This document shows, in pieces, positions 5,365 through 32,000 of a DNA stretch of 32,000 bases. The notes under the pieces are model-generated. The model did no database searches. It was not told where the DNA came from and was given only the letters and a program-made list of their open reading frames with translations. The stretch comes from an uncultured bacterium. GTDB lineage: Bacteria > Patescibacteriota > Gracilibacteria > UBA1369 > PNNO01. The translations under genes and the position numbers were made by a program. The DNA lies in assembly GCA_963704705.1 (NCBI GenBank), contig OY969931.1:570001-602000 (forward strand), given 5' to 3'. The number at the start of each line of letters is the position of its first letter. Position 1 is the first letter of the stretch.

Positions 5365-6252
5365 TTAACTTGGAAAAAAAGATTGAATCCAGCTCCAGAT
5401 ACTCGTTAGATTCGTCCATGCTAGTGAGTAATCTATTGCTAACAGTGATATTATAACTATTATTCCAGCTATAATTTTATGTTTCCATGCAGATTTAAGT
5501 ATTTTGAAAATTAGTAATATAAGCTGCCAGAGCCACCAAAATGGATTGATCCAATTCCATGTGTTTTGAGGAATACGGAATGGTTGGGTCTTTTTTATTT
5601 CAAGTTGCCTAGTGAATTTATCTATTAGTTTTATAAAACGTTTGATTGAATCACACGTGTCAATGACACTTTGTCCTACTCCTAAATAATAAATGTGAGC
5701 TGGGGTACAACTCCCTTGCATTAATGCTTCTTGGTCACGGCTAACTAATGTGGTAGGAATCATGTTTTCTATAAAATGATCTCTTCCTTTTCCGAATTTA
5801 AATTCTTCTATATTTGAGCGTAATTCTTTTTCAGCACCCATGCCATCTAAATTTAATGATGAAAGCATGATACTTATTTCATGCAATGATTCTTCAGCTT
5901 TTTCTCTAATTGCAGCTTCTTCTTTTTCTAAGTTATCTATGGAAAAATTAGTTGAAATATTACTTTCGATTTTGCTTTTAACTTCTTCAGCATCCTTTTC
6001 CTCCCAACCATCTGGAATTCCATTGATTCCTCCCCATTGACCACTGAATTTTTCTTCATGTTTTGGGATGTCGAAATTTTTGAAATAGAGTAGTCCATGA
6101 TATCCAACGAATGATTGGCTCCAAGATTTACCAACTTTATTACAGGATTCAATGAGTTCATTGCTCTTCTCTTTTAGTACTGTACATGATTGAGAACAAT
6201 CTTTTTTCAGTTCTTCTGCGACTTTTTTGATTTGTTCTAATTTTTTTTTCAT
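5365..6252 (-). CDS. hypothetical protein with soluble N-terminal domain and two C-terminal Trp-rich TM helices (third gene of the OLD operon)
   Basis: ATG start and TAA stop, 36 nt downstream of the preceding gene. C-terminal helices INPFWWLWQLILLIFKILKSAW and IIAGIIVIISLLAIDYSLAW. Confidence 0.65.
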   Translation of the reverse strand: MKKKLEQIKKVAEELKKDCSQSCTVLKEKSNELIESCNKVGKSWSQSFVGYHGLLYFKNFDIPKHEEKFSGQWGGINGIPDGWEEKDAEEVKSKIESNISTNFSIDNLEKEEAAIREKAEESLHEISIMLSSLNLDGMGAEKELRSNIEEFKFGKGRDHFIENMIPTTLVSRDQEALMQGSCTPAHIYYLGVGQSVIDTCDSIKRFIKLIDKFTRQLEIKKTQPFRIPQNTWNWINPFWWLWQLILLIFKILKSAWKHKIIAGIIVIISLLAIDYSLAWTNLTSIWSWIQSFFPS

Positions 6253-6288
6253 ATGTTTAGTTGTAGATGTGTATACTAACTACCGCAA

Positions 6289-7389
6289 TTATGCATAGAC
6301 CGACTCCCTTTTAAAACTGTAAGCTCTGCCCGTAATATATCGTAATATCAGAAATGGAAAAACAATATGATTATTTTCTAAAAATCGTCTTACCATTATA
6401 AACAACTCTGGATCAGACATTTCAAGCTCCAGCCAGCCACTAGGTGTATATCTTGCAATTGAACCAAGAAGAAAAACTAAATAAAACCTAATTTCAACAT
6501 CTCTTTGTTTTGGCACATTTGTTGCACCAAAGCCAAGTGCATATTGTGTGCCATAAATATCCTCAGTAGTGCTAATTATTTCATCACAAAGTGGTTTGTC
6601 TTCTGCAGAAAAGTCTGTAAATTTATTATTGCAGGCGGCAACAGTATAAAAATTATTTTTTTCAGGAAAAATTTCATCCATACGCTTATAAATGTCTTCA
6701 AATCCTGGGATTGTAGATACATCTTTTATTGGATTACAATAATGATAATGTCCTGATTTTGTATGTGCTCCAGTGGATGAAAAGCCTGTTATACATCTAA
6801 ATACATGTGGTGCTTTTTTGAGTATGCTGTAGCATTCTTTTCTTAATTCTGGCAGAAAGCGCAAGTATTCTTTTAATGGAGGTAGCTCATCTGGAAGAGC
6901 TGTTGAGTAAAAAAGGCTATGCAAATCTTGAGATATCCCCCCTTTTCCATTTTTGCAATAAAAGTTTCTTAATTCCTCTGATTCTTGTTTCTTATAACCA
7001 TGATAATTTGTTGGAGTTATACCAAAAAATAACAGCATCGCTTTTATTAGTAGTTCACACACATACATGTGCGTAATAATCGTATTTTGTGGTGAAGTAT
7101 CAATACAGGTATAGTCGTAATTTCGTGCAGTTTTTATAATATTGATTATTTCTTGAGTGACTGATGCATTTCTGTTTTCTTTTTTAGAATAGTATTCTAT
7201 ATGGTCATATATCCAGCTTCTTAAATCTGGGACTGGATGTAACAGAACATTCCAGTTAGAATGACCTCCCGTGCCTTCAGGGCAATAACTGGGTTGTATT
7301 ACATATGGTGGTCTGTCTTCAGTTTTAAATTGTTGCAACTTATTTAAATTATTTATCAAGAACTTTAAAAGTCTCGTCAAGCAACTCAA
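6289..7389 (-). CDS. Cys/His-rich hypothetical protein (about 349-366 aa), partner of the OLD nuclease
   Basis: Long ORF with no ATG in its first 107 codons. In-frame TTG candidates at 7389, 7380, 7359 and 7338, so the start either overlaps the OLD stop (7349) or lies 10 nt after it. The C-terminal LLGSIARYTPSGWLEL...RRFLENNH loosely recalls YaaC-like or HEPN-type (R-x5-H) tails. That is a weak, unverified impression. Confidence 0.6.
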   Translation of the reverse strand: MSCLTRLLKFLINNLNKLQQFKTEDRPPYVIQPSYCPEGTGGHSNWNVLLHPVPDLRSWIYDHIEYYSKKENRNASVTQEIINIIKTARNYDYTCIDTSPQNTIITHMYVCELLIKAMLLFFGITPTNYHGYKKQESEELRNFYCKNGKGGISQDLHSLFYSTALPDELPPLKEYLRFLPELRKECYSILKKAPHVFRCITGFSSTGAHTKSGHYHYCNPIKDVSTIPGFEDIYKRMDEIFPEKNNFYTVAACNNKFTDFSAEDKPLCDEIISTTEDIYGTQYALGFGATNVPKQRDVEIRFYLVFLLGSIARYTPSGWLELEMSDPELFIMVRRFLENNHIVFPFLILRYITGRAYSFKRESVYA

Positions 7390-9178
7390 ACAGCTTATTA
7401 ATGTTATCCATTGATTCTTGAGACAATTTGATGTTATCAGTTTCTACCGATTGTAAGAATAACCTCGCAAGCAGAACTTTATCCATCTTCTTTTGTTTCA
7501 CATATTCACTGTTTGAACCCGAATACTCTTTTTCTTCTTTTATAACAAATTTTTTAAAGTCTTCTGCAGAGAAAATATCCTCTATTGTTCCTTCTTTTTC
7601 TAATACAGACAGTATTAATTTTTTAGAAACCAGCCAAGTTTTTGTAAGGTTTTTCACTCCATCCTTTTTACCTTGGTCTTTATCATATAAATATACAACT
7701 TTACAGCCCCATCCATGAAGAACTGTGCCTACAAATGGCATATTCCCAGCACCACCGCCAAATATGAAATTTATGTCATTGTTGTTAACTAATTTTTTAA
7801 ATGCCTGTAAGTAAAAAATGTCAGATTGCCCTTCAACAACAACATTATTAAGCTTATCCAAATTAGTAATTCCAGAACTTAATTCTAGCCCTATAGCAGT
7901 CAGTATAGGTGTTAAAGTTTCTTTATCAGCTAAGGCATGTATTTTATTTATTATTTCTGTGCCTTTCTTTTTATGCCTTGTTATTAGCCTTATGCGATTA
8001 AGTTTGTCAGCTTCAAGAAGATATGGCGAATGTGTGGAAAATATAAGTTGTGCTTCTTTTGATGAATCTTCAAGCTTTTCCAATATATCTTTCTGTGCTT
8101 TAGCATGTAAAAATAAACCAGGTTCATCGATCAGGATAATATTTGGAAGCGATTCCTTTGCACGTGCCGTTATTTTTATATAAAACGCTAAATGCCATTG
8201 CCGACCTTTACTTCTTAAGCTTGGTTCATAAGGATAATTGTCTTCTTCAATCCAAAAAAGTAGGGAATCTGAATCCCAGTCAACACTAAGATTGGATACA
8301 TCTTGAGTCCAGAATTTTTTATAATCGTCATTTAAATTGATATTTATATCAGTTTTATGTTTATGCTTAGTCCTGTCCTCGCTGCTTTTAATAGTTTCGA
8401 TGTTCAGATCACTAATTACTGAAAGGTCTTGAACCCATTCATTATCCTCAAGTTCAGCAAACGGTACCTTATTTGGGAAAATGTCATCAAATGAATTAAA
8501 AAATATAAAATACGGAATGTATTTTTCTTTTAGAACTTCAATAAACTTGTCTTCAATATCTTTGAGATTGTTAAGTTTTTCAGCTTTATTTATCAAATTT
8601 TGTAAATAAGTCGAAAACTGAGTTCTTTCCTTCTCAACTTCAATTTGTTCAAGATTTGGATTGGTTGTATCCCTAAATGTTTCTAATTCGCTTTTAAAAG
8701 TATCAATTTTATCTGAAGCAGTAGGTAAATCACCGCCGAGCTGAGCATATTTTTGATGTATCTTGTGCAAATAATCAAGTAACTTCTTCATTTCTTTTTC
8801 AATTTCATCTTTATTAGTTAAATCCAGTCTTTTTCGTGATTCTTCAGCAATTTTATATTTGTCAGGATACTCCTTAATAATTTCGATTTCCATCGAATCT
8901 AAGCTCTTATTTAATTCTATTTTGTTCAAAATATCAGTAAGAGTAGATTTGCTGATTTCAAATGTTACTGAAATTGAAGGTTTATTATTAGTGTTTTTTA
9001 TTGGGATTGCCTCTTTTCGTATTGTTTTATCAGCATCAAAATCTTCCAAGGCTTCAAGTACTGATGTTTTTCCAGATTCATTTTTTCCAGCAAGAATTGT
9101 TATGTTATCTGTCAGGTAGCAGTCGCCACTATCTATAATGGATCTGAAGTTTTTAATTCTAAATTTAATTAACTTCAT
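7349..9178 (-). CDS. OLD-family (overcoming lysogenization defect) ATP-dependent nuclease: ABC-type ATPase + Toprim
   Basis: Walker A GKNESGKT (aa 31-38), Walker B IILIDEPGLFLH and STHSPYLL. The C-terminal Toprim has VVVEGQSDIFYL and VVYLYDKDQG acidic motifs. At 609 aa it is close to P2 Old and GajA in size. Confidence 0.85.
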   Translation of the reverse strand: MKLIKFRIKNFRSIIDSGDCYLTDNITILAGKNESGKTSVLEALEDFDADKTIRKEAIPIKNTNNKPSISVTFEISKSTLTDILNKIELNKSLDSMEIEIIKEYPDKYKIAEESRKRLDLTNKDEIEKEMKKLLDYLHKIHQKYAQLGGDLPTASDKIDTFKSELETFRDTTNPNLEQIEVEKERTQFSTYLQNLINKAEKLNNLKDIEDKFIEVLKEKYIPYFIFFNSFDDIFPNKVPFAELEDNEWVQDLSVISDLNIETIKSSEDRTKHKHKTDININLNDDYKKFWTQDVSNLSVDWDSDSLLFWIEEDNYPYEPSLRSKGRQWHLAFYIKITARAKESLPNIILIDEPGLFLHAKAQKDILEKLEDSSKEAQLIFSTHSPYLLEADKLNRIRLITRHKKKGTEIINKIHALADKETLTPILTAIGLELSSGITNLDKLNNVVVEGQSDIFYLQAFKKLVNNNDINFIFGGGAGNMPFVGTVLHGWGCKVVYLYDKDQGKKDGVKNLTKTWLVSKKLILSVLEKEGTIEDIFSAEDFKKFVIKEEKEYSGSNSEYVKQKKMDKVLLARLFLQSVETDNIKLSQESMDNINKLFELLDETFKVLDK

Positions 9179-9212
9179 TACGTTTTTTGTTATTTACAAT
9201 TTTAGCTTGTGT

Positions 9213-9241
9213 ATTATGCCTTTTTTTGTCTTTTTATTCAA
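9213..9241 (-). promoter_or_regulatory. sigma70-like promoter for the OLD operon (TTGAAT-17-CATAAT on the minus strand)
   Basis: The minus strand reads TTGAAT (9241-9236), a 17-nt spacer, then CATAAT (9218-9213), about 35 nt upstream of the OLD ATG. Confidence 0.4.
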
Positions 9242-9245
9242 TAAA

Positions 9246-9274
9246 TTGTATATTTGTAACGTTAAAAATGTAAT
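9246..9274 (+). promoter_or_regulatory. sigma70-like promoter TTGTAT-17-TGTAAT, implying a near-leaderless mRNA for the 251-aa gene
   Basis: The hexamers are readable with 17-nt spacing. The -10 ends 9 nt before the ATG at 9284. Confidence 0.35.
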
Positions 9275-9283
9275 GAATCCTGT

Positions 9284-10039
9284 ATGCGACTGAAAATTTC
9301 ACCCATTGAAGCCTTAAAAAAAATAGATAAGTTAGTTAAGAGCGGAGCCCAAATCCTTAATTATATTCGTGGTGATGCTTGGGATTTTCATAAAAATCAT
9401 ATACTGACACAGGGTGTATATTTAGATGAGGAAGACCATAATTTAAAGCCTAAGCCCTTAAATACAGAAGAAACAGAGCTATATGCTAGTAAGTATGACA
9501 AATGGGTTAAAAGCTGCAAAGAAGAGCTAGAATTAATATTTTTAGACTATACTCCTATTTATAAGTTTATTAATGCTTTTGATGATTCGGAAATTCAGGT
9601 TGGTCAGCAAGATAGACCGTATTTACTTTGGGAACGAAATATAGAAGCTAAATTAGAGGTTTTAAGCTCATTTTTCGACGGTTTAAACAGTTTTGTGCGT
9701 TCACCACTTTCTTACCTCTCAGACAGGGCACAGATTTGTTTTTATGACTTAATTTGCCAGTTAACTCCAGATACAAACGAATCAATGTTATGCAATTACA
9801 TGTTTAAAGAGTTATCAGTTGGTGAGAGTGTTGATTTTGTTAAAATTTATGCGGAAATCAAAGGTGAAGATGTTGAATTGCAACCTGAATGGCCTAATAC
9901 CTGGAAGAAGACAGTTGATACCGCTTATAATGAAATTAACCGTAAAACTAACAAATCTTTTGGATTTTCAATATTCGAGAAGAAAAAAAACATGCTTTTT
10001 ATTAAATTACCTTCCAGATTAATTTCCAGCTTTAAGTAA
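9284..10039 (+). CDS. hypothetical protein (251 aa), element-borne
   Basis: ATG start, TAA stop and coding-like composition. No domain recognised. Confidence 0.6.
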   Translation: MRLKISPIEALKKIDKLVKSGAQILNYIRGDAWDFHKNHILTQGVYLDEEDHNLKPKPLNTEETELYASKYDKWVKSCKEELELIFLDYTPIYKFINAFDDSEIQVGQQDRPYLLWERNIEAKLEVLSSFFDGLNSFVRSPLSYLSDRAQICFYDLICQLTPDTNESMLCNYMFKELSVGESVDFVKIYAEIKGEDVELQPEWPNTWKKTVDTAYNEINRKTNKSFGFSIFEKKKNMLFIKLPSRLISSFK

Positions 10040-10083
10040 ATTCATTTTAAATTAGACCAAAAACCTTCCCAGTCAGCGCAGGT

Positions 10084-10224
10084 GCTTGTTCGCTTATATT
10101 TTAGGCGCACTTGAAAAAACTTTATTTATGAATGCGAACAAGCCATACGAAAATTTGATTGGGAAAAATATCTCTGACACCGAAAAGGAAGAGATAGCTT
10201 GTTCGCTTACAGATTTTTTTCAAG
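10084..10224. repeat. iteron-like repeat set upstream of the SpoVG-like and Rep genes
   Basis: GCTTGTTCGCTTA occurs at 10084-10096 and 10197-10209. Its 10-nt core is inverted (GCGAACAAGC) at 10134-10143. CTTGAAAAAA at 10110-10119 is inverted as TTTTTTCAAG at 10215-10224. Confidence 0.6.
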
Positions 10225-10271
10225 TCTTGATCGAAATTGACCAGGATAACAAGAAGAATAATGAAGCATAA
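10128..10271 (+). CDS. possible small acidic protein (47 aa from ATG 10128; the track ORF starts at TTG 10086)
   Basis: Short ORF that overlaps the repeat set and so may be spurious. Its stop overlaps the start of the SpoVG-like gene. Confidence 0.25.
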   Translation: MNANKPYENLIGKNISDTEKEEIACSLTDFFQVLIEIDQDNKKNNEA

Positions 10272-10572
10272 GATAACCGAAGTTCAGATTCAAATTGTAA
10301 AGCCAAAAGATGGTCTTATTGGTTTTGCCAGCATTGTGCTGGATGAAGAATTGTACATAGGTTCTATTGGCATTCATAAGAAATTGAATACTGACGGATT
10401 TAGGCTCACTTATCCAACAAAAGCGTTATCAAACGGTCAGCAAATTCATATTGTTCATCCAGTAAATAAGCGGCTTTCAAAACTTATTGAAAAAGCTGTT
10501 TTTACTAAATTAAAAGAAGTAATGCGAAGTGTTTATGATAGACACAGTAGTTTTAACAATACCGATTATTAA
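10261..10572 (+). CDS. SpoVG-like nucleic-acid-binding protein
   Basis: From the internal ATG: MKHKITEVQIQIVKPKDGLIGFASIVLDEELYIGSIGIHKK...FRLTYPTK...IHIVHPVNKRLSKLIEKAV. This follows the SpoVG pattern (V.D.R.. + KA.ASIT.D..F.V..I.V.... + HPI), recalled from the B. subtilis SpoVG sequence. Confidence 0.65.
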   Translation: MKHKITEVQIQIVKPKDGLIGFASIVLDEELYIGSIGIHKKLNTDGFRLTYPTKALSNGQQIHIVHPVNKRLSKLIEKAVFTKLKEVMRSVYDRHSSFNNTDY

Positions 10573-11689
10573 AGGAATGATTACGCAAGGTGAATTGTTT
10601 TATCCACATTTAGAGGTCTTTAAAGATCATAACGTCATAAAGCAGAAAAGTTATATGAAATCTGTACAAAATCCTAGTAAAAGAGATGTAAAAGAAGGTA
10701 ATTATAAGCCACGGTTGACCGTATTTTGTAGACCTGTGTATCCGCGTGGCAGAGAATTTAATTTAAGAATTGAATTTTCAGCTCCTAAATTACTATTTGG
10801 TAATAATTTTGATGAACTTGAAGAGGCTGATTTTCAGGAAGTCTTACGAAAATTACAGACTAAATTACATGAGATGGGCGTGAGTATTTCGTTAAGACGA
10901 CTTTCTTCAGCGCCGGTAAGCGCTATTCATTATTCTAAAAATATTGTTTTAGATGATTATACTTCTGTATCTATGATTACTAACCAGCTCAAGAAAGTGG
11001 ATGTGAAGACTATAATAGATACAGAACAGAGGGAATATAGGAATGAAGGGCATTTGTTAAGGTTTCATGCAAACTCTTATGAATTAGTCTTTTACGATAA
11101 AATAAAAGATTTACAGCAGGCAAAAATAAGCGATAAAAGAGCAGTTGAAAAAGATAGTATTTATCAAATGTGTTTATTTGATGAGCTTAAGTCTATTAAA
11201 CCTTTCGAAGTTTTAAGAATGGAAGCGAGGTTAAATAAACGGCAGAAAATAAGGTCTGTTTTTAAAAATATTGGTTTATCTTACCATATGGATATTACTT
11301 TTAAAGAAGTCTTTAAAAAGAAAATTGCACAGGACGTTTTACTATATTTTTGGGAACAAATGGATAAAGGTATAAAGTTTTTTTCTGTAGATATGAGTAG
11401 CATTGCGGATATTTTTTCAGAAATTAAACGTTTACGTCCTTCATTTTCAACAAACAAGATTCTTCAACTTATAGGAGCTTTACTATACATACAAGAAAGT
11501 GGCGTAAGGCAATTTAGGGCGGATTTAGGGCTAGTAGGTACTAAAGCTTCTGTTTGGTATCGCTTACAAAATGATTTAAAAGTCACAAATAGCATGAGAA
11601 CAGATTCTCACTATAAAAGACTTCTTAAAATACCTGAAGCATTGAAATTGTTTCTTCCTTTAAAATTGGCTTCATATTCAGTAAAATAA
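10535..11689 (+). CDS. rolling-circle replication initiator, filamentous-phage gpII / CRI family
   Basis: MIDTVVLTIP matches M13 gpII MIDMLVLRLP. LRIEFSAPKLLFGNNF matches VEIKASPAKVLQGHNVF. ELVFYDK matches LVAYLKH. VLRMEARLNKR matches LVRFEARIKTR. The track ORF begins at GTG 10529, but ATG 10535 fits the family N-terminus. Confidence 0.8.
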   Translation: MIDTVVLTIPIIKGMITQGELFYPHLEVFKDHNVIKQKSYMKSVQNPSKRDVKEGNYKPRLTVFCRPVYPRGREFNLRIEFSAPKLLFGNNFDELEEADFQEVLRKLQTKLHEMGVSISLRRLSSAPVSAIHYSKNIVLDDYTSVSMITNQLKKVDVKTIIDTEQREYRNEGHLLRFHANSYELVFYDKIKDLQQAKISDKRAVEKDSIYQMCLFDELKSIKPFEVLRMEARLNKRQKIRSVFKNIGLSYHMDITFKEVFKKKIAQDVLLYFWEQMDKGIKFFSVDMSSIADIFSEIKRLRPSFSTNKILQLIGALLYIQESGVRQFRADLGLVGTKASVWYRLQNDLKVTNSMRTDSHYKRLLKIPEALKLFLPLKLASYSVK

Positions 11690-11708: not shown

Positions 11709-13187
11709 ATGAAAGCTATTACATTAGCCAGGGTCTCAGATAAGGAACAAGAAGACAGAGATTCCTTACCTGCACAAGCTGATAACTTTATTAAGTATTG
11801 TGATAGGCACGAATTAGTCATCATTAAACAATTTGAGCTTGTAGAGTCATCAACCCGTGGGAACAGAACAAAATTTAATGAAGTTATAGAATTCATTAAA
11901 AAACAACCAGAAACAGTGGCGCTCGTGGTCGATAGGGTCGACAGGCTCCAAAGAGGATTCAAAGAGACTGTAATATTTGATGAATTGATGCAAAAAGGTA
12001 AAGTCGTACTCCATTTTATCAGGGAAAATTTAATAATTAGTGAAAATTCCAAAGGTCCTGATATTATAAGATGGGATTATGCTGTAATGGCAGCTAAAAC
12101 ATACATTCTTCAATTGCGTGATAATGTTAACTCTACAAAACAATTCAAATTATCGAGAGGGGAGTGTGTAACTCAAGCTCCAACGGGGTATTTAAATGTT
12201 ACTGACCCTGCTACAGAAAGAAACACTGTTGTTATAGATAAAGATCGTGCGCCATTTGTTAAAAAGACATTTGAACTTTATTCAACAGGATTGTATTCAT
12301 ATGAAAGCCTTGCTGTAAAACTTGCTGAAGAAGGTTTTACTAATAAGAGAGGTAATTCAATATCAAAAAACTCTATTGGTTTGATTCTTCAAAATAAGTT
12401 TTATTATGGAATTATCGTACATAAGGCAGGTAATAATACCGAATATCCCCATAATTACCCCAAAATTATTACTAAAGGACTTTATGATGATTGTATGGAA
12501 GTTGCAAAAGCACGACAAAAAACACCGACTAAATACATATTAAAACCTTATGCTTTTAGAGGCTTAATAAGATGTGCTCATTGTGGTTGTACGATTTCAT
12601 TTGAAACACATAAAGGTAAATATGTTTATAGTCGTTGTAACAAATCAAAAGGGAATTGCCCTGCAGGATATGTACGTGAAGAAATTTTGTTGTCACAAGT
12701 ATCAGAACTGCTAAAAAAGTTAGCAATTCCTAATGATGTGCTAGTAGATTTAAAGCTTAGATTGCAGAAGTCTAGTGAAGCTGAAATTCAATATCATAAA
12801 CACTCTATCGCAACTTTAAGACGTGAATATGATCAAATTCAACAGAAGTTGCATAACTTACTTGATTTATGTATTGCTGGGAGTATTACTAAGAGTCAAT
12901 ATGACGAAAAAGCTAGTGAACTGAAACAAATACAATACAACATTGATATGAAATTAAAAGAACACACAAAGGCAGATGAAGAGTTTGGAATTACGGTTTC
13001 TTATCTTATGGAACTCGCATCTAAAGCATATAAGTTGTTTGAAAGTTCGAAAGTAGAACAAAAACATAGAATTTTAAAATTATTACTTTCGAAAATTACT
13101 TTAGAGGGTGAAAAGCTTTATTTTAAAGTAAAAAGTCCCTTCGAGGCTATAATAAATGCTAAAGAACGTTGTTTTTGGGGTGAGTGA
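11709..13187 (+). CDS. large serine recombinase (integrase)
   Basis: The N-terminal resolvase domain has the catalytic-Ser motif ITLARVSDKEQ (S10) and VVDRVDRLQR. There is a recombinase domain, a zinc ribbon CAHCGC...SRCNKSKGNCP and a C-terminal coiled coil. The last 12 nt overlap tRNA-His on the opposite strand. Confidence 0.9.
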   Translation: MKAITLARVSDKEQEDRDSLPAQADNFIKYCDRHELVIIKQFELVESSTRGNRTKFNEVIEFIKKQPETVALVVDRVDRLQRGFKETVIFDELMQKGKVVLHFIRENLIISENSKGPDIIRWDYAVMAAKTYILQLRDNVNSTKQFKLSRGECVTQAPTGYLNVTDPATERNTVVIDKDRAPFVKKTFELYSTGLYSYESLAVKLAEEGFTNKRGNSISKNSIGLILQNKFYYGIIVHKAGNNTEYPHNYPKIITKGLYDDCMEVAKARQKTPTKYILKPYAFRGLIRCAHCGCTISFETHKGKYVYSRCNKSKGNCPAGYVREEILLSQVSELLKKLAIPNDVLVDLKLRLQKSSEAEIQYHKHSIATLRREYDQIQQKLHNLLDLCIAGSITKSQYDEKASELKQIQYNIDMKLKEHTKADEEFGITVSYLMELASKAYKLFESSKVEQKHRILKLLLSKITLEGEKLYFKVKSPFEAIINAKERCFWGE

Positions 13188-13253
13188 TGGGGCTCGAACC
13201 CACGACCCTCGGGACCACAACCCGATGCTCTAACCAACTGAGCTACACTCACC
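13176..13253 (-). tRNA. tRNA-His (anticodon GTG) with encoded G-1 and CCA
   Basis: The minus strand folds as a cloverleaf. G-1, then acceptor GTGAGTG/CACTCAC. D arm GCTC-AGTTGGTTA-GAGC. Anticodon arm TCGGG-TTGTGGT-CCCGA. Variable loop GGGTC. T arm GTGGG-TTCGAGC-CCCAT. Discriminator C, then CCA. Confidence 0.9.
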
Positions 13254-17798: not shown

Positions 17799-20126
17799 TT
17801 AAGGCAGGTCGTTAATAGCAGATTGTAGTTCGATCATTATTTTATTCAGATCAGTATAATGTTTGTTGAATTCTTTTTCGTATCCATTTTTTACTGCATA
17901 TTGATAATTTTGCTGGCTGAATATAATTAAAATGATATTTTTATAGGCATCTAAATCTTGCTGTAATAAATCTTTTGAAGCTCTATATTTTTTTATATCA
18001 ATTTTTAAAGCTTTTAATAATTTTTTTAGTTTTTTAACCTTTTCATTAAGACTCCTTAATGTAGTAACAACTTGTTCACGTTGATCTCTAAAAAGTAATT
18101 TTTTTACCCTATCACGTTCAGTAATGGCTCTTTCAGGTGCAACTGCTCCAGCAAATCCTTCTGCCGGAGGAGGAGTCGGAGGTTCATCACCGCCGCCCGG
18201 AGGAGCGGGAGGAGTAGGAGGAGGAGTCGGAGGTTCATCACCGCCACCCGGAGGGGTGGGAGTAGTAGGAGGAGGAGTCGGAGGTTCATCACCGCCACCC
18301 GGAGGGGTGGGAGGAGTAGGAGGAGGAGTCGGAGGTTCATCACCGCCGCCCGGAGGAGTAGGAGGAGGAGTCGGAGGTTCATCACCGCCACCCGGAGGGG
18401 TGGGAGGAGTAGGAGGAGGAGTCGGAGGTTCATCACCGCCCTTGTTTGCACCTAATACATATATTTCTGCATTTCCACCCTCAGAAGTTGTTTCACTTGT
18501 ATTCCCTTGTGAGGAACTTGTAATTTTTCCTGTTTCAGCAGTGCCGCCAGCACCGCCTTCAGTTGTGATAGCGCCGGTTTCAGCAGTACCGCCTTCGCCT
18601 CCTGCACCACCTTTAATATCACTAATATTTATACCTTCTGTTTTGCCACCTTCAGCAGTACCACCTGCACCACCTTTAACATCACTTATATTTACTCCTT
18701 CTGTTTTCCCACCTTCGCCCGTAGAAGTAATAGCGCCGGTCTCAGCAGTTCCGCCTTCACCACCTGCACCACCTTTAACATCACTTATATTTACTCCTTC
18801 TGTTTTCCCACCTTCGCCCGTAGAAGTAATAGCGCCTGTCTCAGCTGTACCACCTTCACCACCGGCACCACCTTGTCCACCTGCAGATGTATTTGAGATC
18901 TGACCCGTTTCAGCAGCGCCACCTTTAATATCGCTAATATTTACGCCTTCTGTTTTGCCACCCATACCACCTTTTATGTCACTAACACTAATCGTTGAAC
19001 CTTCACTTTTACCGCCCATCCCGCCTTTTACATCACTAACACTAATTGTTGAACCTTCACTTTTACCGCCCATACCGCCTTTTACATCGGTAACAGTAGC
19101 GCCTTCACTTTTACCACCCATACCGCCTTTTACATCACTTACTGTTGCACCTTCGGATCTTGAACTTACGGTTCCGGTTTCAGCTTTACCGCCGGCTCCG
19201 CCTTCTGAAGTAGATTTAACATCGCCTGTTTGAGCACTTGAATCTGCATTTATTGTACCTGTTTCAGCAGCACCACCTTTACCCCCTTCAGCTTTTACAT
19301 CACCGGTTTTTTGAGTTATATCACTAACTGATGCCCCACGGCTATCACCACCTTCTGCTTTAGCAGATCCACCATAAGCATTTACATTTACTGTTGTTGA
19401 TCCTTTTACTTGTCCCATTAAATTCATCAAATTTTCATCTACGATAACAGCTTTGCGGGGACTCCCACCTTCTTCTTTCTTATCTTTCTTTTTAGATTTT
19501 TCTACTTTTTTCTCAGGCTTTTTTTCTTTTTTTCCACCAATAATAGGAATATCTCCACTTTCTTCACCTTCTTCTTTTCCACCTCTTTTATCTGTGATTT
19601 TGATTGGTTTAGGTACTTCAACAGGTTTCTCCTCTTTTATTTCAGGCATATTAACAGCTCTGTTATCTGATGCACCTCCATATTTTCCTGATTCATAAGT
19701 ACCTTTAAAATTTTTACCAATATCTCTACCTTTTCCAGCTCTTTCAACTTTTATATTTTCTTCAGCTTGTCGTTCTCTATCAGGATTAAATTCAGGTTCT
19801 CCTGCAATTTGTTCTGTTCTTGCTTGTTCATCTCTTTTTTGAGGTTCTTCAGTTGGTTCTGCATATCTGATTTCATCAGTTCTTTCTCTATTTATTTCAT
19901 CAGTTCTAAATCTTCGTTTATCAGTTGTTTTATCAACTTTTTCTTTAACCTCCTTTTTTATTTCTTCAGCTTCAGGAAGCATAGCGGCTCTTTTCTCAGT
20001 TTTTTTAAAGCCTTTTTCTGCAGCAGCTTTTTCCTTTTCTTCCTCTTCTTTGGGATCAACTGCAAAATTTATGAATTTTGAATATTTCCAGGATAAATTT
20101 TGGAAATGTTTAAATAATTTTTTCAT
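17799..20126 (-). CDS. highly repetitive, low-complexity protein (775 aa): K/E-rich N-terminus, Gly-rich repeats, Pro-rich repeats, C-terminal coiled coil
   Basis: ATG start and TAA stop. Repeats of the type SDVKGGMGGKSEG and GGAGGEGGTAETGAITSTGEGGKTEGVNISDVK, then six GGGDEPPTPPPTPPTPP units. No signal peptide. Confidence 0.8.
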   Translation of the reverse strand: MKKLFKHFQNLSWKYSKFINFAVDPKEEEEKEKAAAEKGFKKTEKRAAMLPEAEEIKKEVKEKVDKTTDKRRFRTDEINRERTDEIRYAEPTEEPQKRDEQARTEQIAGEPEFNPDRERQAEENIKVERAGKGRDIGKNFKGTYESGKYGGASDNRAVNMPEIKEEKPVEVPKPIKITDKRGGKEEGEESGDIPIIGGKKEKKPEKKVEKSKKKDKKEEGGSPRKAVIVDENLMNLMGQVKGSTTVNVNAYGGSAKAEGGDSRGASVSDITQKTGDVKAEGGKGGAAETGTINADSSAQTGDVKSTSEGGAGGKAETGTVSSRSEGATVSDVKGGMGGKSEGATVTDVKGGMGGKSEGSTISVSDVKGGMGGKSEGSTISVSDIKGGMGGKTEGVNISDIKGGAAETGQISNTSAGGQGGAGGEGGTAETGAITSTGEGGKTEGVNISDVKGGAGGEGGTAETGAITSTGEGGKTEGVNISDVKGGAGGTAEGGKTEGINISDIKGGAGGEGGTAETGAITTEGGAGGTAETGKITSSSQGNTSETTSEGGNAEIYVLGANKGGDEPPTPPPTPPTPPGGGDEPPTPPPTPPGGGDEPPTPPPTPPTPPGGGDEPPTPPPTTPTPPGGGDEPPTPPPTPPAPPGGGDEPPTPPPAEGFAGAVAPERAITERDRVKKLLFRDQREQVVTTLRSLNEKVKKLKKLLKALKIDIKKYRASKDLLQQDLDAYKNIILIIFSQQNYQYAVKNGYEKEFNKHYTDLNKIMIELQSAINDLP
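18169..18440. repeat. in-frame tandem repeat, six units of 51 nt (one of 42 nt), encoding GGGDEPPTPPPTPP(TPP)
   Basis: The unit anchor GGAGGAGTCGGAGGTTCATCACCGCC starts at 18169, 18220, 18271, 18322, 18364 and 18415. Confidence 0.95.
18455..19380. repeat. degenerate Gly-rich coding repeats, including two near-identical 99-nt units
   Basis: The units 18671-18769 and 18770-18868 share their first 67 nt exactly and differ at about 5 positions after that. Shorter 54-60-nt units encoding ...SDVKGGMGGKSEG... lie at about 18950-19150. Confidence 0.85.
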
Positions 20127-29440: not shown

Positions 29441-29712
29441 TTATGTACTTTGACAATTAGTTGCGGATAATAACTAATAAAACAAATCTAAAAATATTTT
29501 CAAAACAACCAAGAATAACCCGGTTTTTCCGGTATATATAAACCAACCTGCCCTAAGATACTGTGAGCCTGCAAAAGAGGAAATGAAAGCGCAGTCAAAA
29601 GAAGTCAAATGGGCACAACCTTCAACCCTCAACGTCAGAAATCACAACGACAGAAGCTACAGGCTTCTTGCCACACAGCAGCCGGACTTTAAGGCCGGCA
29701 GGAGGAATCGAG

Positions 29713-30861
29713 ATGGACAGACTCAATCGTTTGGTGCTCTGTATGGGCGCCGCCTTCATGGTCTTCGTGATGGCCATTCCCATGGCCAACGCGCAGGCCG
29801 ATCCCGACAACGATCCGGTCGCGGTGTGTGACATCGCGGCGGGACCCGGTGGGCTCAGGGTATTCCCCTGGGCGCCCGGCGATAAGGAGCTGGCAGTGCG
29901 CCTCGAGTACGCGGAATTGCGTACGCTCTTTATCTACAAGGAGTGTGGGGGGAAGGACGACATCCCCGTGGTCAAGATCGAGGGGACCAATTACATCACG
30001 ACCAAAACCAGATGGGAGGACGAGAACGACCCCAAGGTCGTCTACAGCGGTCATCGGATCTTTATGCTCGCGCAGCGAAAGCGCGACATCAACAATGGCC
30101 GCGGGTTCCCGATGACGATCACGACGAGTCAGAAGACCTTCCACCTGCGGATCTTCGTCATCCCGAGCGTTTCCATGGCCGGTCAGGCCGATCGCAATGC
30201 TCGGGTCATCAACGAATGGAACAAGAGCCAGGCTTTGCTGGCCAAGCGTGTGGTCGCAAACGAGAAGCGAAGCATCAATGCCCGAAGGGCTGATGTGGAG
30301 CTCTCGCTTTACGGCTTCTTCGCCGGCGAGACTCCGGGACATCCGGGTGGTGGTATGGGCATCTCGTCCAACATCATCCTTGGCAAGTTCGCGAAGGACG
30401 TGGTGCAGCTCGGCTTGAGCCCGCACATCTCTTTCATGCGCTACCAGCTCCAGATCGAGGGGCTTCCCCCTGACGGAGCGCTGAACCGCGACATGAACTC
30501 GACTGAATGGGACTTTGGTCTCAGTTTTCTCCTTCGTATCCAGCCCTTCAAGTACTTGTACTTCGATGGGAAACTGGGCTTCTCCCTGCGTGTCGTTGAC
30601 AACAGCGACGCCATGACCTGGCAGGAGGACTACCCCACCTACCAGATCTACGGGATCAACGGCAGCACCGCCAAGATGGCGGTGCTCAACTGGAGCATCG
30701 GTATCTACTTCCCGGTAGCACGGAACTTCGCTTTCGGAGTGTCCTACATGGGCACCGTATCCCTGACGAAGCAGGCCTGTGTGCTCAGTGCAACCACTGA
30801 CCACAACATGTGCAATTCCTTCAACCACAGCGGCGCGGTCGAAATCCGCGCACGCTTCTAG
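29713..30861 (+). CDS. secreted protein, probable outer-membrane beta-barrel (GC-rich segment)
   Basis: SD GGAGG lies 7 nt before ATG 29713. Signal peptide MDRLNRLVLCMGAAFMVFVMAIPMANAQA. The C-terminal ...GAVEIRARF ends in an aromatic residue as in OMP beta-signals. The track start at 29668 is probably too far upstream. Confidence 0.6.
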   Translation: MDRLNRLVLCMGAAFMVFVMAIPMANAQADPDNDPVAVCDIAAGPGGLRVFPWAPGDKELAVRLEYAELRTLFIYKECGGKDDIPVVKIEGTNYITTKTRWEDENDPKVVYSGHRIFMLAQRKRDINNGRGFPMTITTSQKTFHLRIFVIPSVSMAGQADRNARVINEWNKSQALLAKRVVANEKRSINARRADVELSLYGFFAGETPGHPGGGMGISSNIILGKFAKDVVQLGLSPHISFMRYQLQIEGLPPDGALNRDMNSTEWDFGLSFLLRIQPFKYLYFDGKLGFSLRVVDNSDAMTWQEDYPTYQIYGINGSTAKMAVLNWSIGIYFPVARNFAFGVSYMGTVSLTKQACVLSATTDHNMCNSFNHSGAVEIRARF

Positions 30862-30886
30862 AACACGAACGAGAGGAGAAGAGACC

Positions 30887-32000
30887 ATGAAACGTAACTG
30901 TATCATGGCCCTGGCCACGGCATTGATCGTGGCCACGGGCTGCAACCCAAGCGGTCTGGAGCATCAGTGCTTCGAGGGGAGCTGCGGACAGGACAGCGGC
31001 GTCGTGGTTCAACCCGACGCCAACGTCAACAACAACAACGACGGCTCGACGGTGCACCCCGACACCGGAGTGATCGTGCCCCACTGCGGGGACAATCACT
31101 GCGATCCGGGGGAGACCGCCAACGACTGCCCTCAGGACTGCGAATCAGTCTGTGGGAACGGCGTGATCGAACCCAACGAGCAGTGCGACGACGGCAACTC
31201 CGATCCCGGCGATGGCTGCAGCCCGTCCTGCGAGGACGAGTATTGTGGCGACGGGATCATCCAGGTGGAACTGGATGAGGAGTGCGACGACGGCAACACG
31301 GCCTCCGGCGACGGCTGCGACACCAACTGTATCCTCGAGTACTGCGGCGACGGCGTGATTCAGATCACGCTGGGCGAGCAGTGCGACGACGGCAACGTCG
31401 TCTCCAACGACGGGTGCAGCGCTACCTGCCAGGTGGAGCAGCCGCTTTGCGGCAATCACACCCTGAATCCCGGCGAGGAATGCGACGACGGCAACACGGC
31501 CTCCGGCGACGGATGCAGCGCAAGCTGTATCCGTGAGTTCTGCGGCGACGGTGTGCTACAAGTCAGCCTCGGCGAGGAGTGCGATGATGGCAACATCATC
31601 AACGGAGACACCTGCAACGCCAGCTGCCAGGTCGAATTCTGCGGCGATAACATCGCTCAGGTCGGCCTCGGTGAGGAATGCGACGACGGCAACAACGTCG
31701 ACGGAGACGGGTGCGATTCCAACTGCTTGCTCGAGACGCCGACCCTTTGCGGGGACGGCAATCTCGACCTCGGTGAGCAGTGTGACGACGGCAACACGAC
31801 CCCCGGCGACGGCTGCACTGCCTTCTGTCAGCTCGAGTTCTGCGGTGACGGTGTCACCCAGATCGGCCTGGGAGAGCAGTGCGACGACGCCAACATCGTG
31901 TCCGGCGACGGCTGCAGCGCCACCTGCCAGGTGGAGAGCTGCGGCGACGGCATCATCCAGGTCGGCCTGGGAGAGCAGTGCGACGATGGGAATCTGATTC
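30887..32000 (+). CDS. lipoprotein with 10 or more Myxococcus-type cysteine-rich repeats (C-G-D/N-G-x5-7-G-E-x-C-D-D-G-N-x4-D-G-C-x3-C), truncated by the window end
   Basis: SD GAGAGGAG is followed by ATG 30887 in frame 2, which stays open to the window end and so is absent from the ORF track. Lipobox [19 protein letters not shown]. Repeats such as [33 protein letters not shown]. Confidence 0.85.

Follow-up and report, generated by a model that had tools for sequence, protein, structure and literature searches.

Adjacent OLD-family, YaaC-family and candidate membrane-effector genes in a Gracilibacteria genome are probably independent modules rather than one system

A 32,000-nucleotide stretch of the genome of an uncultured member of the Gracilibacteria (Patescibacteriota; assembly GCA_963704705.1, contig OY969931.1, positions 570,001 to 602,000), referred to below as the window, carries three genes packed head-to-tail on the minus strand (Table 1). 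We call them OLD, which encodes a predicted OLD-family ATPase-Toprim nuclease; P2, the middle gene (a label unrelated to that of the prophage gene P2 Old), which encodes a YaaC-family protein; and P3, whose product ends in predicted membrane helices. A first-pass annotation of the window had read them as a candidate undescribed defence module in which an OLD nuclease is accompanied by two partners. The open-reading-frame (ORF) map places three co-directional ORFs where that annotation had them. Across genomes, the three genes are distributed independently of one another.

Table 1. Features discussed in the text; positions are counted from the first letter of the window.
Feature	Position	Strand	Length	Basis or remark
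OLD	7349-9178	minus	609 aa	ORF map
P2 (middle gene)	6289-7338	minus	349 aa from TTG 7338	Start inferred from homologue N-termini
P2, alternative start TTG 7389	6289-7389	minus	366 aa	Overlaps the 3' end of OLD
P3	5365-6252	minus	295 aa	ORF map
P3 N-terminal conserved domain	5578-6252	minus	residues 1-225	Putative sensor/regulatory domain, unnamed
P3 C-terminal effector slot and stop codon	5365-5577	minus	residues 226-295	
Divergent intergenic region upstream of OLD	9179-9283		105 nt	Presumed promoter region for OLD-P2-P3
Large serine recombinase	11709-13187	plus	492 aa	Pfam Resolvase, Recombinase, Zn_ribbon_recom
tRNA-His (GTG)	13176-13252	minus		ARAGORN; Rfam tRNA 66.3 bits; likely integration target

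The spacing of the genes is as tight as first described. OLD ends in a TAA codon at 7351-7349, and a TTG codon 10 nt past this stop opens a P2 reading frame that begins MQQFKTEDRPP. This beginning fits the N-termini of all homologues (MKQF, MEQF or MQQF), and P2 is therefore most likely a 349-aa protein that starts after OLD rather than within it. Another 36 nt separate the P2 stop from the ATG of P3. A readable promoter had been claimed at 9213-9241. The sigma-70-like matches upstream of OLD, at 9241-9213 and 9274-9245, reach 9/12 of the consensus, and the region holds 17 matches of this quality against 20.2 expected from shuffles. The claimed site therefore carries no evidential weight. Our scan of the region for promoters and terminators returned nothing above shuffle level, and no terminator-like sites were seen between OLD, P2 and P3. 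The three genes are probably co-transcribed here from the divergent intergenic region.

All the motifs on which the OLD-family call was based are present. The ABC-type ATPase lies in the N-terminal part, with a Walker A motif (GKNESGKT, K37), a Walker B motif (ILIDEP, D351/E352) and STHSP; the Toprim domain, with the motifs VVVEGQSD (E449) and YLYDKDQG (D499/D501), is C-terminal and fused to it in a single ORF. Among PADLOC models (PADLOC-DB release of 2023), Old matches best (E=3.6e-26, residues 338-519), followed by AriA, PtuA, AbiLi and GajA, the last four on the ATPase part. The Pfam models AAA_15 (66.5 bits) and AAA_21 (54.5 bits) both score above threshold, and OLD-like_TOPRIM, at 18.1 bits, falls below its cutoff of 23.2. 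When PDB sequences are searched with phmmer, the protein matches PtuA (8ee4) and the Class 1 OLD of Thermus (6p74; E=5.5e-7, a local match). Its ATPase motifs align with those of both structures, and E449 aligns with the Toprim glutamate of 6p74. Judged by these motifs and matches, the gene encodes a complete OLD-family ATPase-Toprim protein, and the first assignment stands.

The published division of OLDs into classes follows the genomic context: in Class 1 the gene is single, in Class 2 it stands with a UvrD-like helicase, in Class 3 it is associated with a retron, and in PARIS the two domains are split (PMC10568477). Class 2, or Gabija, can be rejected for the window, since P2 and P3 have no PADLOC match at E<=1 and no Pfam helicase domain, and P2 belongs to the YaaC family. 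Class 3 is rejected in turn because the neighbouring proteins scanned hold no reverse-transcriptase domain; an Rfam scan of the window at gathering score returned nothing but tRNA, and hence no retron non-coding RNA (ncRNA). Class 4, or PARIS, and AbiL are rejected because the ATPase and Toprim domains are not split into two genes. The annotation's statement that the locus is not Gabija, retron or PARIS is thus borne out. Six relatives of OLD (30-63% identity) have varied neighbours or none, as the Class 1 definition has it, and by context OLD is a Class 1 protein: a known kind, and a new member of it. That single-gene OLDs of Class 1 can defend by themselves has been reported (PMC12392090, and a 2026 report on ybjD).

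A search across 185,579 species-representative genomes returned only three close relatives (58-63% identity), which lie in gammaproteobacterial, flavobacterial and nanoarchaeal metagenome-assembled genomes. In the first, a 203-aa HNH gene stands upstream, a serine recombinase nearby and an ABC transporter downstream; in the second, an Mrr restriction enzyme stands upstream; and the third is alone on a short contig. A tblastn search of these three loci found no P2 or P3 relative. More distant relatives lie on plasmids, one from Lactococcus (40% identity) and two from B. thuringiensis (30-32%), and each of them stands alone. In sum, 0/6 OLD relatives have a P2 or P3 relative beside them. The two upstream nuclease genes are close to their OLD neighbours and on the same strand, the HNH gene 7 nt away (L058, 5367-7812) and the Mrr gene (296 aa) 23 nt away (L057, 283-3035). 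Such nuclease-plus-OLD pairs may reflect variable pairing or plain defence-island packing.

The middle protein had been called unrecognisable. This description does not hold: P2 scores 45.2 bits against the Pfam model YaaC (PF14175), whose gathering cutoff is 27 (E=1.1e-11), and the match is nearly full-length (profile positions 22-307 of 307). By this match P2 is a bona fide YaaC-family protein. Its own subfamily is rare, comprising 15 clusters, and 14/15 members carry the same precomputed Pfam assignment. From only these 15 sequences, AlphaFold2 returned a confident model of P2 (predicted local distance difference test, pLDDT, 91; predicted template-modelling score, pTM, 0.92), in which an alpha/beta region is inserted into a bundle of helices. 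Foldseek found no significant match to the model in the PDB (best E about 1), and the family profile gave only noise against PDB sequences. Judged by the model, the YaaC fold appears to be without a solved representative.

Two other identities were considered for P2. Its tail, RFLENNH, had been likened to the R-x5-H ending of HEPN proteins, a resemblance that dissolves on comparison: across the 15 members only F319 and N323 are invariant in this segment, and the arginine and histidine vary. In hhalign, P2 reaches a probability of 0.15% against the Ymh-HEPN profile, the sole HEPN family compared. These results, together with the lack of a PDB match by Foldseek, lead us to reject a HEPN identity. 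We also reject a divergent GajB/UvrD-type helicase, the outcome that the annotation had itself named as one that would refute it: P2 has no PADLOC or Pfam helicase match and belongs to the YaaC family instead. Its earlier description as a protein with neither a Walker A motif nor helicase features is correct. The invariant polar residues of the subfamily (H113, H140, H199, D252, K277, E282 and R284) suggest, speculatively, an enzyme or a metal site. Our literature search for YaaC, PF14175 and TIGR02391 in defence returned nothing past the 2013 HEPN survey.

Relatives of P2 (45-72% identity) were placed in six distinct contexts. One adjoins a tyrosine integrase, one follows an acetyltransferase gene, and one precedes a RelA/SpoT gene; a fourth has an integrase fragment on one side and RNase T/NUDIX genes on the other, and a fifth lies between integrases and an IS1595. 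In the sixth (L062, 2105-8071), an HsdR-HsdM-HsdS-YaaC array has as its fourth gene a relative with 49% identity to P2, which overlaps hsdS by 4 nt. This position, at the end of a type I restriction-modification (R-M) operon, is a niche known for Ymh-HEPN and other genes resembling abortive-infection (Abi) accessory genes. An OLD or P3 relative is present in 0/6 of these contexts.

P3 combines a conserved N-terminal domain with a hydrophobic C-terminus. The N-terminal part, about 225 aa long, is predicted to be an alpha+beta domain in which a three-helix stalk carries a small head (AlphaFold2 pLDDT >90 over most of its length). It is marked by the motifs SWSxS..G.HG, EWGGI.GIP.GW and (S/T)RD..A..QG, with W44, S45, S47, H52, W73, G74, P80, W83, R172 and D173 invariant. 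No model in Pfam, PADLOC, NCBIfam or PHROGs matches this domain, it has no match among solved structures in the PDB, and the family profile finds only noise among PDB sequences. Pfam holds models of AbiTii and AbiJ_NTD3-5. A Pfam match on the N-terminal domain was found in neither P3, nor 24 relatives, nor 99 family representatives (123 members besides P3), and a PADLOC match on it in neither P3 nor the 24 relatives; the AbiTii and AbiJ_NTD3-5 models would be among those that fail to match. The C-terminus contains a strong transmembrane (TM) segment at residues 255-273 (mean Kyte-Doolittle value 1.87). A weaker helix, rich in Trp, comes before it at 234-252 (1.39) and an amphipathic tail after it; AlphaFold2 places helices at 237-255, 261-272 and 275-292 with low confidence. 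P3 does end in Trp-rich membrane helices as first proposed, one strong and one weaker, and we predict from its sequence that this end is a membrane-disrupting effector.

The family to which P3 belongs is large. A profile search covering 1.84 billion cluster representatives (clusters at 50% identity) retrieved 1,019 clusters at E<=1e-3, 576 of them at E<=1e-10. For C-terminal domains we scanned 99 representatives, each 270 aa or longer. A DpnII-MboI restriction endonuclease (REase) domain is present in 19, a CAP12/Pycsar-type TIR domain in 13 and another TIR domain in 4; Ymh-HEPN occurs in 8 and the nucleoside phosphorylase domain PNP_UDP_1 in 2. At least one TM segment follows the N-terminal domain in 32/99, and the closer set of 24 relatives adds a match to DUF4145. 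In these homologues the effector domains occupy the position of the C-terminal helices of P3. The P3 family thus swaps effectors behind one constant domain. A Rosetta-stone test by BLAST found no gene pairs in which N-terminal domain and effector are split. A constant domain joined to a swappable toxic domain, with no recurrent partner and with R-M genes or recombinases as frequent neighbours, is the signature, as read from sequence, of a self-contained abortive-infection protein.

To place P3 homologues in their neighbourhoods, about 40 contexts in all, we drew on 25 homologues from a word search, 46 metagenome loci and one viral contig. Among the 46 metagenome loci and 6 others with P3-family genes, an OLD-family gene stands beside a P3 homologue only at L007/L013, which are the same contig. 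There a TM-type P3 homologue has the OLD (626 aa) as its immediate upstream neighbour, and this OLD is distant from that of the window (24-34% identity in local segments). A YaaC relative occurs in none of these loci, L007 included. The P3 homologues of L007 and L009 are similar, and each is about 40% identical to P3 of the window. The two loci also share the 244-aa and 127-aa genes downstream of the P3 homologue (86% and 71% identity), yet L009 (6328-8812) has no OLD: it carries genes of 113 and 140 aa where L007 (5065-9002) has the nuclease. The arrangement resembles a hotspot for cargo swapping within a group of related elements, which have Macro-domain genes as well. A Pfam scan of 83 immediate neighbours of P3-family genes gave a heterogeneous set that includes N6_Mtase, Eco57I, ResIII, R.HinP1I, TdeIII, resolvases and housekeeping genes; SMC_N-type ATPases appear among the 83 only twice, as the L007 OLD and as a SufC.

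Several single loci of the P3 family deserve description. At L008 (5434-8796), a TM-type homologue of 301 aa lies on the same strand between sufB-like and sufD-like SUFBD-core genes; a suf operon for Fe-S cluster assembly is an unusual housekeeping site for a putative toxic gene. The independent metagenome contigs L066 (1-970) and L067 (1-961) begin 82-88 nt upstream of a TM-type homologue, and the assemblies may break at a variable or repeated junction at this point. What had the appearance of P3-SLH synteny between the window and L066 is domain-level similarity only. No annotated relatives of P2 or of the P3 N-terminal domain were found in plasmids and phages.

We therefore find no conserved linkage among the three genes from the side of OLD, of P2 or of P3. 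The first-pass annotation had named exactly this outcome, partners that are not consistently linked to homologues of OLD elsewhere, as one that would refute its three-gene module. Because relatives of each gene occur without the other two, a one-system reading is unsupported, and we conclude, with a probability of roughly 0.6 to 0.65, that OLD, P2 and P3 are independent single-gene modules. With similar confidence we regard the three as defence-related at all.

The setting of the genes is plausibly an integrative element. The gene for the large serine recombinase overlaps the 3' end of tRNA-His by 12 nt at its stop, and it is this overlap that makes the element plausible. We found no direct repeats of the tRNA-His 3' end that could serve as att sites and did not locate the other boundary; the repeat search is uninformative, since for serine recombinases very short identical cores suffice. 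The location of the three genes next to a serine recombinase and tRNA-His is borne out. Between the recombinase and OLD, the element backbone (9284-11689) seems uncharacterised: proteins of 251 and 386 aa that have no Pfam or PHROG match flank a SpoVG-like protein (10237-10572). Homologues of these backbone genes were found in none of the fetched loci, and what the window and the homologue-bearing loci share by way of a backbone is serine recombinases at 23-26% identity only.

The locus is accordingly best read as the cargo region of a serine-recombinase element beside tRNA-His, an islet of three conflict modules that are packed head-to-tail and probably co-transcribed and that would act independently, without having co-evolved. 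By analogy with Class 1 OLDs, the ABC ATPase of OLD would gate a Toprim nuclease of the two-metal kind, by which invader DNA would be nicked or degraded. The YaaC-like P2 would be an accessory conflict gene, occupying niches like those of accessory abortive-infection genes. In P3, the N-terminal domain may detect an infection cue or ligand; the signal would then pass through the helical stalk or through oligomerisation and release the C-terminal membrane helices, which, once freed, could depolarise the membrane or make it leaky and thereby abort the infection.

Several observations weigh against independence or against a defensive role. The genes follow one another at 10 nt and 36 nt on one strand, with no terminator-like sites between them, as in an operon, and they may be functionally coupled in this single lineage. 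Among TM-type P3 contexts with upstream information, OLD adjacency occurs in 2/5, which is above casual expectation. Close relatives are also few, 3 to 6 per gene. Moreover, the founding member of the YaaC family, in B. subtilis, is not known to act in defence.

One alternative is that the genes serve the mobile element, through addiction, stabilisation or competition, rather than anti-phage defence of the host. OLD, for example, would exclude rival phages or plasmids in the manner of P2 Old, itself a prophage gene that acts against another phage (PMC10568477), and P3 would be a toxin that penalises loss of the element. All three families do occur beside integrases or recombinases. Against this reading, no antitoxin-like partner accompanies P3 or its relatives in the scan of 83 neighbours; P3-family and YaaC-subfamily genes also reside in chromosomal R-M and suf operons, away from recombinases. 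In practice, this alternative overlaps with defence. We consider it unlikely.

A second alternative keeps the genes together as a lineage-specific multi-gene OLD system, in which OLD is the sensor and P3, with or without the YaaC-like protein, is a recruited membrane effector; the locus would then represent a new class of OLD context. The tight co-directional packing without terminator-like sites speaks for such a system, as does the appearance of the P3 family, which is that of an effector module equipped with a receiver domain. The L007/L013 pair adds a second, independent adjacency of OLD and P3, again with a TM-type P3 and with a distant OLD. Against this stand the L009 locus, which keeps the P3 homologue and its downstream genes without any OLD, the close relatives of OLD, all of which lack P3 and YaaC, and the roughly 40 P3-family contexts without an ABC ATPase partner; YaaC relatives, in their six contexts, are never beside OLD. 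We judge a system of this kind to be quite improbable. A more general form of it, in which, in some lineages, an OLD that senses DNA ends or phage proteins works with a P3 N-terminal domain that receives the signal and sets free the effector, be it of the membrane, TIR, REase or HEPN type, and of which the window and L007 would be two independent instances, is in our estimate about equally improbable. A toxin-immunity pair independent of OLD, in which the YaaC-like P2 neutralises a membrane toxin encoded by P3, would draw on the 36-nt spacing and shared strand only and is very improbable, as a P3 relative is present in 0/6 P2 contexts and a YaaC relative in none of about 40 P3 contexts.

Under the preferred reading of three independent modules, each gene can be compared with systems already described. 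Like the Class 1 OLDs P2 Old, Thermus scotoductus OLD (6p74) and the OLD of Vibrio cholerae, the OLD of the window has no conserved helicase, reverse-transcriptase or split-Toprim partner and is apparently carried by a mobile element; unlike them, it is followed by an unrelated gene 10 nt downstream, and its sequence is distant from theirs. It appears to share the ATPase and Toprim chemistry of Gabija, of Class 3 retron OLDs, of PARIS (AriA/AriB) and of AbiL, to judge by its motifs. It differs from these systems in that its domains are fused and in that it lacks a UvrD-like helicase, a reverse transcriptase and an ncRNA. P2 resembles the YaaC family, including B. subtilis YaaC, nearly end to end over PF14175, and its subfamily differs in being rare, mobile, and located beside integrases or, in one case, last in a type I R-M operon.

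The architecture of the P3 family resembles that of AbiJ-NTD, AbiTii and Ymh-HEPN fusions, in which, according to a published survey, a constant non-catalytic N-terminal domain is combined with interchangeable toxic C-terminal domains, often in or adjoining R-M operons; the same survey describes Ymh as a HEPN family of R-M operons and Abi-like fusions (Anantharaman et al., 2013; PMC3710099). The P3 N-terminal domain differs from the AbiJ-NTD and AbiTii domains in being longer (about 225 aa), in having its own motifs and in having no Pfam match, and the TM and PNP effector variants of the P3 family are not described for those domains in the accessible part of the survey (PMC3710099). In its repertoire of two-TM, CAP12/Pycsar-type TIR and REase effectors, the P3 family also recalls the CBASS and Pycsar effectors Cap15, PycTM, PycTIR and Cap4. 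The CBASS and Pycsar effectors depend on a cyclase encoded next to them and contain a domain that senses nucleotides, whereas the P3 family has no recurrent partner; P3 differs, too, in that its effector is C-terminal. Neither a cyclase nor a nucleotidyltransferase ranks with the 25 commonest Pfam families in the set of 83 P3-family neighbours, and the window proteins scanned include no cyclase or nucleotide-sensing domain. Within the libraries and literature searched, the P3 family would be an undescribed variant of the sensor-effector theme of abortive infection.

Other parts of the window are unusual in composition. The region 30000-32000, and within it 31178-31986, has a GC content of 58-64%, against about 32% for the genome, and could be foreign DNA or an assembly join. 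Eight copies of a 99-nt tandem repeat at 31178-31986 encode Cys-rich units of the form EQCDDxN...GDGC...C...CGDG, within an ORF on the plus strand (31533-31997) that runs off the end of the window. At 29668-30945, two long ORFs without a Pfam match overlap on opposite strands. A second set of tandem repeats, with periods of 42-99 nt and a locally raised GC content (49.5%), lies at 18166-19154; it sits in a 775-aa ORF (17799-20126, minus strand) without a Pfam match, and neighbouring ORFs of 959, 927 and 331 aa have no significant Pfam match.

Comparative genomics does not uphold a new three-gene OLD system at this locus, which spares effort on a gene set that is not conserved. What emerges instead concerns the two downstream genes. 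The mobile YaaC subfamily, with its R-M and integrase contexts, provides a first functional lead for the YaaC family. The P3 family, with about 1,000 clusters and with C-terminal domains of the canonical cell-suicide types, has the look of a single-gene immune family not yet described, and learning which cue its N-terminal domain recognises would supply bacterial immunity with a new module for pattern recognition.

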